Virus record (IMG/VR): IMGVR_UViG_3300030514_000001
Location: 64,001-128,000 of that record
DNA length: 64,000 nucleotides
Origin: a virus
Taxonomy: Duplodnaviria; Heunggongvirae; Uroviricota; Caudoviricetes; Herelleviridae
Strand: one strand, 5' to 3'
The notes beneath the pieces are model-generated. The model ran no database searches and was not told where the DNA came from. It saw only the letters and a program-made list of their open reading frames with translations. Shown here in pieces: positions 3,961-11,551 of the stretch (positions are counted from its first letter, which is position 1; each line of letters begins with the position of its first letter). A program made the translations under genes and the position numbers.

Positions 3961-3985
3961 AGAGGGAAAATCCCCTCTTTTCTTT
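3961..3985 (+). terminator. intrinsic terminator
   Basis: AGAGGG/CCCTCT stem plus T tract. Confidence 0.6.
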
Positions 3986-3995
3986 AAAATAATTG

Positions 3996-4024
3996 TTGAC
4001 TTAAAGTAAAGAGTGTAGTAATAT
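3996..4024 (+). promoter_or_regulatory. sigmaA-type early promoter
   Basis: TTGACT-17-TAATAT. Confidence 0.8.
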
Positions 4025-4046
4025 AGAATTATAAGGAGGAGATAAT

Positions 4047-4364
4047 ATGTGGAAGAAAATAGCTTTAGTAGCTCCCTTGCTTTTCTTAGGGGCTTGTGGT
4101 GGAGAAACAAAAATGGTTACAGTAGAGAATGCGGAGATAGTAGATATCGAAGGTATTGGGTGTACACAGAGGTTTTGTAACTACTACCTAACAGTTAAAA
4201 AAGGAGATACAACAGTAAAGTTACGTTCATCAGAGCTTACAGCGAAAGCAGCTACGAAAGGTTCTAAAGTTAAATTTACATACGACCCTACTAGCCTAGA
4301 AATAGAGAGCCTTATGTTTACAGATTTCGACCCTAAGGAGGAGAATAAAAATGATGAGAAGTAG
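4047..4364 (+). CDS. putative lipoprotein
   Basis: basic N-terminus, hydrophobic core, lipobox LGAC. Confidence 0.75.
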   Translation: MWKKIALVAPLLFLGACGGETKMVTVENAEIVDIEGIGCTQRFCNYYLTVKKGDTTVKLRSSELTAKAATKGSKVKFTYDPTSLEIESLMFTDFDPKEENKNDEK

Positions 4365-4575
4365 AGGTAAGGTGATTACTCAAATGAATGAGTTTAGTAG
4401 AATGCTATATACGATTAATATCCTTGAAAGGAAGCTTAGAGAAGAGGGTAGAATTACAATCCACTGTAAAGAGGAAGAACATTTTAAGTTGGTAGAATTA
4501 CTTCAATTCAAAGATACATATACTTTACGAGTAGGGAATAGCTTCTCTATATTTATGAAAGGAAGGGACAAATAA
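4351..4575 (+). CDS. hypothetical protein
   Basis: ORF with SD. Confidence 0.7.
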   Translation: MMRSRGKVITQMNEFSRMLYTINILERKLREEGRITIHCKEEEHFKLVELLQFKDTYTLRVGNSFSIFMKGRDK

Positions 4576-4981: not shown

Positions 4982-5647
4982 ATGATTAGAATTTTAGCGA
5001 TGAGAAAAGAGAAATACGTAGGCAAGTCAGTAAGTGGACACAATTGCAACTTTGAATACACGGATACAGTTAAGGAACGTCACGTATTACTAGGGTTGGA
5101 CAAGCATAATAATAAGTTGCTGATTACCTTATGGGACGAGGAAGGAGAGTGTGGTTCTGGCTGGTGTACTGCTTCCTTTGGTCATATCACAGTTGAACAT
5201 GTCGATAGATTCGAAGGTTATACTCATAGAGCGAAAGACATGCTTATGATTCCAGACCTTCAAGACGAAGATGGCGTGCTATACTATGGAGCGGACTTCC
5301 ATAACCAAGTGTTCCGTGTTACATACGACGGGGGAGATAGTTATTACCCTAGCGGATACTATGAAGTAGATGAAAGTCTATTCATTGCAGGTGGTAGATA
5401 CTCCGAGGAGCGCCCTGTGTGGATATTCTGTGGGGAGTCTGGTCTAGGTAAAAGCTTTATTGCAGGTAATCTACAAGGGTTAGAGGTATATGAAACAGAT
5501 ACTAGTAGCACATTACCTTCTACGATTACAGCAGATGTAGTTGTTATCGGCAATAAACATGAGTTCTGGACAAGTCAAATAGAAGAAAGATTAATAGAAG
5601 GTTCTAAGTCTATCATTGTAGGATTCGAAGAAGGAGAGAGAAACTAA
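4982..5647 (+). CDS. hypothetical protein with Cys motifs and short C-terminal P-loop domain
   Basis: GHNCNF, GECGSGWC, Walker A GESGLGKS. Confidence 0.75.
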   Translation: MIRILAMRKEKYVGKSVSGHNCNFEYTDTVKERHVLLGLDKHNNKLLITLWDEEGECGSGWCTASFGHITVEHVDRFEGYTHRAKDMLMIPDLQDEDGVLYYGADFHNQVFRVTYDGGDSYYPSGYYEVDESLFIAGGRYSEERPVWIFCGESGLGKSFIAGNLQGLEVYETDTSSTLPSTITADVVVIGNKHEFWTSQIEERLIEGSKSIIVGFEEGERN

Positions 5648-9268: not shown

Positions 9269-9586
9269 ATGGAAATCAGAAAAATTAAGTGGAATGTAGA
9301 GTTTAAAAAAGAGATGTCAGAGCTTGAATTATACGGTATTGAAAGTGTAATCGATAATTATTGGTATGATGAAACATTTGATTTCGATAGTGAAGTGTTA
9401 GGGCTTGCTTATACATCATCTAGTCAATACGCAATGTATAACGTTTGTAACGGTGATTTCACTTATTATGATGAAGATTTAAGCGAAGATTTAACAATTA
9501 GTCATTTCGCGGTAACAAGTACAGGTCACTTAGTAATGATATGTAATGATAGAATAGAAAACGAATTTATGTTCGAACTCGTGTGA
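9269..9586 (+). CDS. early acidic hypothetical protein
   Basis: follows repeat; 3' end overlaps ribozyme. Confidence 0.8.
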   Translation: MEIRKIKWNVEFKKEMSELELYGIESVIDNYWYDETFDFDSEVLGLAYTSSSQYAMYNVCNGDFTYYDEDLSEDLTISHFAVTSTGHLVMICNDRIENEFMFELV

Positions 9587-9644
9587 GCGAGTATAAACAG
9601 GCTTTAGGCTCACAGCGTCGCGGGGTTTATCCCCTGCGGGTAGC
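9577..9644 (+). ncRNA. pistol self-cleaving ribozyme
   Basis: P1 ACTCG/CGAGT, loop TGTGAG, ATAAACAG, P2 GCT/AGC, pseudoknot GTGAGC/GCTCAC, AGCG, P3 hairpin, GT cleavage dinucleotide 9640-9641. Confidence 0.88.
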
Positions 9645-9732
9645 AACTAAAATAAAATTTTAAATAGTTGTTGACTTTCTGTAAAGAAGGGTTTAAAATG
9701 AAAGTAACTTAAAAAAAGGGAGATGTTTTATA

Positions 9733-10614
9733 ATGACAAAAAAATTAACGGTTGGTCAATATGATGTACTAGAGGTATTAGGCGATGAACAAGACGTGTT
9801 AGCACAATTCAATGATTATGACGGTTCAACATACATTTGCGATGCTATTCAAGAAATAGCAGATAAGGCTATACCATACCAAAATTATAAATTATGGGAA
9901 AACGCGCCAAAAATTCAAGATTCAATAGAGGAGGCTATAGACAGCGGTTTATGTGAAACGGCGCGCGGTGAACGTCCCGACTTAATTAAAATTTTCACAG
10001 CCGGACATTATCAATACTACTCACAACTATTATACGATAATGAGGGAGTTATGTATTATGATTACATTGCTACAATCGTTAATAATTGGTTGGAAGGGCT
10101 AAATCATGACCAATTAGAAAAGCTAGATATTGACGAACTCGACGAACGTATAGAAGAGGAAAAAGGGAATATAGATAATAACGATTATATGGAAGACTTG
10201 GAAGACATCGCAAAACGTATTATTGCAGAGTTTAAAGGAAAAGTTAATAAAGATGCAAGATGGACGAATTACGGCGACGTGAACGCTTTAGAGCATGGAG
10301 GCGACTTTATTAAAAAAGATATTGATTACCCGCTTGACAAGTGTTATTACTACGTTAAAGTGATTAATATGTATAATGCATGTGGTGAAGATGGTTACAG
10401 AGTCGAAGAGGGATATATAGACTTAAATGATAGTTGGATTGATTGGAACGCTGTAGAAACTACATGCGACGTAACAGACCGTGACGAAATCAAAGTCATT
10501 GACGTTGTAAGTTATTACGGAATGGAAGAGTTTAACGGAGAGGCATTATCATTTGATGATGAAACAGAGGTTTTAGAGCATTTAGCAACAAAAGGAATTT
10601 GTATCGAAAATTAA
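9733..10614 (+). CDS. Ocr-like (T7 gp0.3-type) acidic DNA-mimic domain fused to an unknown C-terminal domain
   Basis: DAIQEIADKAIP...DSGL...DLIKIFTA..Y aligns with recalled Ocr DAIHMAADNAVP...DSGL...DVIRILQA..Y; very D/E-rich. Confidence 0.7.
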   Translation: MTKKLTVGQYDVLEVLGDEQDVLAQFNDYDGSTYICDAIQEIADKAIPYQNYKLWENAPKIQDSIEEAIDSGLCETARGERPDLIKIFTAGHYQYYSQLLYDNEGVMYYDYIATIVNNWLEGLNHDQLEKLDIDELDERIEEEKGNIDNNDYMEDLEDIAKRIIAEFKGKVNKDARWTNYGDVNALEHGGDFIKKDIDYPLDKCYYYVKVINMYNACGEDGYRVEEGYIDLNDSWIDWNAVETTCDVTDRDEIKVIDVVSYYGMEEFNGEALSFDDETEVLEHLATKGICIEN

Positions 10615-10676
10615 TTGTTGACTTTTAGAAAACACACATGTTACAATAAGGGTAACTTAATAAGGGGGGTTACATC

Positions 10677-11209: not shown

Positions 11210-11551
11210 ATGATAGACTACAATTATTACGGTACTAAAGGTATTAAAGCGACAACGCACGTTATTAATGAAGATAAACTAATTTACGAAATTGTTTCAT
11301 ACACACAATTACAAAGTTCTGATATATGTTTCTTGTATAACCTTGAATTGGTGGCGGGATATGATTACATTAATCCAGACTATAACGACATACAAGGCTA
11401 TGTATCTAAAGAGAACTTTATAGAAGATATCCACTTTGAACAATTCACATTTTACGCTATGTCAGAGTCATTAACAGAGGCGTTAACAGACCACGGTTAT
11501 AAAGTGATTGATATTAACGATTACAAGATACACCAATTTAAAGGGTGTTAG
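11210..11551 (+). CDS. early hypothetical protein
   Basis: follows repeat. Confidence 0.8.
   Translation: MIDYNYYGTKGIKATTHVINEDKLIYEIVSYTQLQSSDICFLYNLELVAGYDYINPDYNDIQGYVSKENFIEDIHFEQFTFYAMSESLTEALTDHGYKVIDINDYKIHQFKGC

Follow-up and report, generated by a model that had tools for sequence, protein, structure and literature searches.

The Bacillus myophage gene at positions 9733-10614 of the window (the whole stretch of 64,000 nucleotides analysed) encodes an acidic protein, P0001, whose N-terminal domain is a remote homologue of T7 Ocr and whose C-terminal part belongs to a separate viral family. Ocr (gp0.3) is a DNA mimic, and the best-established role of its fold is against type I restriction-modification (R-M) and BREX. 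On balance, the sequence and structure-model comparisons incline us to regard P0001 as a DNA mimic, made early, that inhibits type I R-M and/or BREX and carries an independent second module. What is directly established is that P0001 is related to Ocr in fold, where its domains begin and end, that it is acidic and encoded behind a promoter repeat, and that its two halves also exist as separate genes; we infer that the label 'bifunctional anti-defence' may apply to P0001.

An acidic protein behind an early-type promoter

The features of the locus are as follows.

9662-9699, + strand: sigma-A-type promoter repeat, AAATAGTTG with TTGACT (-35, 9671-9676), a 17-bp spacer and TAAAAT (-10, 9694-9699)
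9716-9723, + strand: strong ribosome-binding site, AAGGGAGA, from the sequence
9733-10614, + strand: the 293-residue acidic protein P0001, an intact 293-codon ORF with no internal stops
9772-10089, + strand: Ocr-fold domain, residues 14-119 (PHROG 2568, hhalign, AlphaFold, VIA-align)
10090-10251, + strand: acidic three-helix extension, residues 120-173, containing D148-N-N150 (alignment and AlphaFold model)
10252-10611, + strand: second domain, residues 174-293, alpha/beta, net charge -20
10609-10647, + strand: next promoter repeat, TTGACT 10618-10623 and TACAAT 10642-10647, which begins at the P0001 stop codon and serves the downstream gene

An earlier note on this DNA had placed an early promoter repeat ahead of the gene, and the TTGACT-17-TAAAAT repeat is indeed present: its element AAATAGTTGTTGACT occurs 19 times in the window at up to two mismatches, against 0.41 expected, and the 15 genome copies with up to one mismatch all lie on the + strand within a 22 kb span (59.7-81.6 kb). 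Read from this consensus-like sigma-A repeat, the P0001 gene would be expressed early. The 12 neighbouring genes tested matched PHROGs without assigned function or nothing, and a search of the phage's own genome (161,203 bp) for paralogues of the Ocr-fold or second domain found none. Between the upstream gene and the P0001 promoter, a GC-rich, terminator-like inverted repeat was seen by eye at 9615-9641. Two small, strongly acidic neighbouring proteins (9269-9586 and 11210-11551; PHROG 4874 and 3653), each with its own promoter repeat, are candidates for further mimics. Further upstream, at 4982-5647, lies the gene for an acidic 221-residue protein (PHROG 10007) that has no confident Pfam match and carries, close to its C-terminus, a P-loop-like GESGLGKS motif.

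The same note had called the protein strongly acidic and about 2.5 times the length of Ocr, and both descriptions stand: P0001 has 293 residues against 117 (a ratio of 2.5), carries a net charge of -43 (68 D/E, 25 K/R) and ranks 7th in acidity per residue among the 166 Met-started genome ORFs of at least 100 residues. The charge is distributed as -24 over residues 1-172 (-14 over 1-123 and -10 over 124-172) and -20 over the second domain. The strong net negative charge of Ocr is thus also present in P0001, though weaker than in T7 Ocr itself (-28 for the whole protein, -19 over 1-106). Per residue, the N-terminal domains of all 17 Bacillus-type proteins aligned here range from -0.12 to -0.26, as against -0.13 to -0.25 in the T7 type, with fused forms (-0.12 to -0.14) less charged than stand-alone ones (-0.15 to -0.26).

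The Ocr-like domain and its relatives

Residues 2-172 of P0001 match PHROG 2568, 'ocr-like anti-restriction', with E 1.5e-33, and T7 Ocr falls in the same PHROG with E 2.5e-57. As this profile contains Bacillus members, we tested the link independently with separate alignments, one of 17 Bacillus-type sequences (A2) and one of 16 T7-type sequences (A4; 16 of 30 loci). In an hhalign comparison the two aligned with a probability of 93.2%, E 3e-7 and a score of 46, whereas 100 block-shuffled controls had a mean score of 16, a maximum of 25 and a best probability of 12%, and the reversed alignment reached 0.3%. Reciprocal HMM searches of 1881 ORFs from 80 loci ranked each family next after the other's own members; with the Bacillus profile, 28 T7-type Ocr ORFs (E 2e-6 to 0.024) outranked the first unrelated ORF. 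Four residues, D37, E41, D44 and G72, are invariant in 17/17 Bacillus-type sequences, with T7-type counterparts D36, E/D40, D43 and G70, and P0001 retains every invariant residue of the Bacillus-type alignment. Single-sequence comparison is weak (BLAST against T7 Ocr: 30% over 69 residues, E 0.013), and PDB sequence searches with P0001 and with queries A1, A2 and A5 returned nothing credible, Ocr not being among the results. ESM Atlas gave no usable feature match for either the Ocr-fold or the second domain, only weak structure rows. One locus, L004, was discarded as a false-positive relative of the N-terminal domain.

The AlphaFold model of residues 1-173 is confident (pLDDT 91.7). On VIA-align re-alignment of 994 chains the top six were all T7 Ocr (Z 6.7-7.9; next Z 5.0), the best being 1s7z with Z 7.9, rmsd 2.6 A and 21% identity over 97 of 106 residues in the model range 14-119; values of Z below 8 may reflect a common helical arrangement. 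As modelled, residues 14-119 adopt the Ocr helical fold. The earlier note's reading of a T7 Ocr-like domain is therefore upheld by the profile comparison beyond its shuffles, by PHROG 2568 and by Ocr coming first structurally, and its motif blocks were placed correctly (I35-Q50, I69-L73, D83-Q94, L100-N103); its span of about 35-103 held for these blocks and not for the boundaries, the fold running from about 14 to about 119. Two checks that it had proposed each gave a divided answer. The Pfam ocr family PF08684 did not match P0001 at its curated cut-off of 25 bits, and it matches 2 of the 17 relatives below that cut-off (best E 0.002, one at 17.5 bits), while the profile-profile comparison was positive. 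Similarly, Foldseek of the 1-173 model returned no match at E<=0.001, the Ocr chains having the highest probabilities (0.38-0.63) at E of about 1, while VIA-align put six Ocr entries first. The acidic helical extension that it had described is likewise present, as three helices at 120-173. This extension occurs in both fused and stand-alone Bacillus-phage Ocr-like proteins, and hence marks the Bacillus-phage subfamily and not the fusion.

T7 Ocr (PDB 1s7z, 6r9b, 7eew, 8q56, 8zek, 9ex7; Pfam PF08684; PHROG 2568) shares with P0001 the fold over 14-119, the DAIxExAD..P and G-L motifs, the acidity and an early-type promoter. P0001 differs from it in its Bacillus host, the 50-residue helical extension, the fused 120-residue domain, a longer third helix, a changed A58 position, a lower charge density and a score that falls short of the Pfam cut-off. 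According to passages of PMC7261183 and PMC11317158, T7 Ocr acts as a dimer and mimics about 20-24 bp, and the former describes the double mutant F54D/A58E as dimer-defective. T7 F54 aligns with W55 (W in 14/17 Bacillus-type sequences), while A58, invariant in 16/16 T7-type sequences, is Ala in 0/17 of the Bacillus type, where the position aligns beside an insertion and is occupied by P (4), Y (4), E (3), S (2), W (2), Q (1) or R (1). The helix holding it is predicted to be longer, spanning 51-70 in the model. Homodimer prediction with residues 1-173 gave a median of 0.35 (mark 0.42), a value that we weigh neither for nor against pairing. Since the A58 position is not kept and the helix is longer, the pairing geometry may differ from that of T7 Ocr.

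A tblastn search found relatives in 176 phage records, 174 of them from Bacillus phages, the nearest being Flapjack, Spock, Troll and B4 at 70-75% identity; 81 of the 176 were covered over at least 80%, a count that includes GenBank/RefSeq duplicates and a few split pairs. P0001 is matched across its full length by PHROG 3460, to which belong the fused orthologues of B4, Troll, Spock, Bastille and their relatives, with the same 291-294-residue architecture and 55-77% identity. It is thus one more member of this fused group, and nothing essential differs. In GenBank, at least five fused proteins among 60 listed relatives already bear the names Ocr-like or type I restriction inhibitor, and those of Jabberwock, Anthos and vB_BcgM are named 'OCR-like antirestriction protein'. 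As GenBank and PHROG already label relatives 'ocr-like', the annotation is not new; given these names, a PHROG that holds both T7 Ocr and the P0001 domain, and an extension found across the subfamily, the earlier note overstated the novelty. Stand-alone Ocr-like proteins, such as those of BCP8-2 (YP_009149626), Bobb (YP_009056297), MrDarsey (YP_010680909) and Moonbeam, have the same Ocr core and extension at 36-52% identity to P0001, end at 165-186 residues without the second domain and have a higher acidity.

The second domain and its linkage to the Ocr-like half

The distinct second domain that had been thought to start at WTNYGDVNALEHGG proved to be a separate family, with this motif at residues 177-190 (nt 10261-10302). 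The family, which is viral and Pfam-less, has the motif W-x-N-Y-G-D-V-N-P-x-E-H-G-G, with GDVNALEHGG in P0001 in place of the usual GDVNPxEHGG. When 1.84 billion representatives were searched with a profile, 254 were recovered at E<=0.001 (clusters at 50% identity), mostly stand-alone proteins of about 120 residues; among the best 150 of these, 121 of 149 (the fused P0008 excluded) have at most 150 residues, and only two, P0008 and P0145, have an Ocr-like part. In the same best 150, which we used because about 98 rows of the broader 216-row profile were picked by motif and bias it, the conserved positions are G181 (93%), D182 (95%), N184 (81%), P at 185 (70%; Ala in P0001), H/Y188 (83%), G189 (87%), G190 (82%), D230 (84%), D233 (80%), W235 (87%), Y261 (87%) and Y262 (89%). 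Among the 157 phage records that the domain matches are those of B. subtilis phages; in SBSphiJ7, for one, it forms a stand-alone 122-residue gene. In a Clostridium phage it is fused to another partner. Its PHROG matches (12969, 38432 and 17818, e.g. SBSphiJ7 gene 242, UPI13467) share the domain as stand-alone proteins or with other fusion partners, and all lack an assigned function; across 118 family members no Pfam family was found in more than one.

A scan for the motif in viral, metagenome and genome contigs yielded 134 further loci, 111 of them at E<1e-3 with 101 distinct sequences, these scores being partly circular because the loci were chosen by motif. The members printed also share the W, A and Y/H-x-G positions that follow the motif, and the family's range is therefore likely to be much wider than Firmicutes phages. 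GTDB genomes gave no relative with the full-length profile and two matches in the motif scan, neither at E<1e-3. The names 'HU-like DNA binding protein' and 'DNA polymerase type-B epsilon' on relatives, and 'DNA repair protein' on the remote Bobb structural match, were rejected as unsupported.

The second-domain model is confident (pLDDT 95.8) and alpha/beta. Seven predicted phage proteins in BFVD match it at E<=0.001 with TM 0.74-0.96. Against the PDB, Foldseek found no match at E<=0.001, and VIA-align of 48,161 chains peaked at Z 4.6 (7eni_C, rmsd 5.1), level with unrelated chains, with weak WGR-like matches at Z 3.7-4.2; these negative results fall short of showing that the fold is new. From the residue types, the domain may be a binding module with a conserved pocket. 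Two BFVD matches, BCP8-2 A0A0E3D9B0 (TM 0.74) and Bobb A0A076G957 (TM 0.61), suggest by their models that each of these phages has another copy of the fold, further diverged than the first. Elsewhere in the family, a remote homologue on a GC-rich viral contig (L008:3992-4405; record shared with L074) has an in-frame TAG right after GDVNP, which may be a broken gene, a sequence error or read-through, and at L009:3983-4624 a stop splits a stand-alone gene into two ORFs where Bobb has a single 213-residue gene. In SBSphiJ-like phages an acidic protein of about 300 residues (PHROG 23767, no Pfam match) recurs just 3' of the stand-alone gene (L089:4810-5718, L078:5823-6726, L174:4439-5323).

Within the Bastillevirinae the two halves occur as the fused B4, Troll and Bastille types and as a longer fused form in W.Ph. 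and DIGNKC. Some phages with a stand-alone Ocr-like gene encode the second domain as a separate upstream gene, as in BCP8-2 and Bobb, where the split genes are 0.3-0.6 kb apart in the order opposite to the fusion; Deep Blue, too, has the halves as near-adjacent separate genes. The longer proteins, W.Ph. gp176 (L003:2662-3786) and DIGNKC P0145, consist of three parts, namely an additional N-terminal region, an Ocr-like domain that has eroded, and a second domain without the N-P..H-G-G residues. The DAIxEIAD block is eroded in the fused relatives P0010, P0013 and W.Ph. gp176.

A general linkage of the two genes outside the Bastillevirinae was not seen in the records and loci examined. In five records with the second domain (three at least 90% complete) a Bacillus-type Ocr gene was found in 0/5, and in five with an Ocr-like gene (none 90% complete by CheckV) the second domain was found in 0/5; the controls were 3/3 each, several of them belonging to the alignments by construction. 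An Ocr-like neighbour at E<0.01 lay at 1 of the 111 motif loci (36 distinct loci with 1 kb on both sides), a search in which the Ocr profiles may miss farther-diverged neighbours. The link is thus largely confined to the Bastillevirinae, and the simplest reading is that two independent early functions were fused within one lineage. The single neighbour, an acidic 105-residue ORF (L063:3669-3986), aligns weakly with T7-type Ocr (96 columns, 30% identity, E 0.0016), has an hhalign probability of 2.6% and no PHROG or Pfam support, and shares 4 bases with the beginning of a remote second-domain homologue (3983-4423). It resembles an ORF at L092:3187-3546 in an H-x-x-x-D-G-H-x-x-x-I-Y block, and the two possibly represent a more remote Ocr-like family.

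Functional readings and implications

The reading of P0001 as an inhibitor is favoured by the shared PHROG, the hhalign and HMM comparisons, the model, the conserved residues, the acidity, the promoter and a precedent from T7. In passages of PMC7261183, a laboratory 0.3-0.7 fusion (110 + 121 residues) overcomes EcoKI, while its anti-BREX activity is largely lost and BREX is beaten partly, a precedent for an Ocr that bears a C-terminal passenger and may, as a result, act on fewer targets. This loss counts against the inhibitor reading, as do the Pfam and PDB misses, the lower charge, the loss of A58 and the eroded relatives. We propose that the host sigma-A RNA polymerase would transcribe the gene immediately on DNA entry, that the Ocr-fold domain would dimerise like T7 Ocr, and that its carboxylates would fill the DNA groove of the methyltransferase-restriction complex. 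In the second domain, the conserved G-D-x-N-x-x-x-H-G-G, D-x-x-D-x-W and Y-Y-G residues would bind a separate target, either a small ligand or a host protein, and the fusion would simply deliver two early functions jointly. The mostly short stand-alone relatives of the second domain, the presence of an Ocr-like part in few of them and the split BCP8-2 and Bobb genes argue for independence, and it is probably a host-binding module in its own right.

Alternatively, the Ocr-fold part might mimic DNA toward another host DNA-binding protein, such as RNA polymerase, a transcription regulator, or a repair or other defence nuclease, and so serve host takeover rather than anti-restriction. T7 Ocr binds RNA polymerase (PDB 6r9b is among the matches; passages of PMC7261183), and the Bacillus subfamily combines the 50-residue extension with a longer third helix and an altered dimer-face position. 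Moreover, the P0001 gene is one of a series of small genes led by promoters, an arrangement typical of regions for host takeover. As the core acidic positions are retained and the fold is best established as acting against type I R-M and BREX, we consider this unlikely, if worth keeping in view. Distinctly less probable to us is that both domains form one unit with one target, the second extending the acidic surface, giving specificity or shielding from a PARIS-like sensor. The fusion in many Bastillevirinae, the near-adjacent genes of BCP8-2, Deep Blue and Bobb, the further fused architecture of W.Ph. and DIGNKC, the overlapping ORF on the unrelated L063 contig and the acidity of both domains would fit such a unit; opposed to it are the lack of co-occurrence in the records tested, where the controls were recovered, the single and poorly matching Ocr-like neighbour among the motif loci, and the reversed order of the split genes.

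Very improbable, in our assessment, is that the fused lineage is losing, or has already lost, a working Ocr-fold part and that the protein is kept for its second domain. Identity to Spock is 94% in the second domain versus 55% in the first, motifs are eroded in some fused relatives and the charge is lower in fused than in stand-alone forms. Nevertheless, the Bastille-like relatives show the reverse, 65% in the first domain versus 41% in the second, and P0001 retains all invariant residues; these opposite patterns point to domain-wise recombination rather than decay.

Ocr is commonly regarded as restricted to T7-like enterobacterial phages. Passages of PMC11724313 place it only in Teseptimavirus and Kayfunavirus, and those of PMC5512222 describe it as phyletically limited; neither these passages nor those of PMC11464382 and bioRxiv 10.1101/2025.06.06.658234 mention the family of P0001, while in passages of PMC12651245 an ocr-like gene is merely listed in a B. 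cereus phage. A literature search, with supplements and subscription papers outside its scope such that a screen may be missed, turned up no Bacillus-phage Ocr that had been tested experimentally. If P0001 is indeed a working Bacillus-phage Ocr, it would be a tool to pass DNA through Firmicutes restriction and a naturally occurring case in which to test how an extension retunes a mimic. Of wider interest is the second domain: it is well folded and motif-rich, spans at least 254 clusters, and lacks both a Pfam entry and a clear match among solved folds. A bolder and rather doubtful proposal is that it founds a new and widespread counter-defence family of hundreds of clusters, mostly of stand-alone proteins of about 120 residues in small-gene regions, with a GDVNPxEHGG/DxW/YYG pocket for a host signal or enzyme, fused in the Bastillevirinae to the first functional Gram-positive Ocr as a two-headed anti-defence protein. 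The fusion to Ocr offers a first functional hint for the second-domain family.
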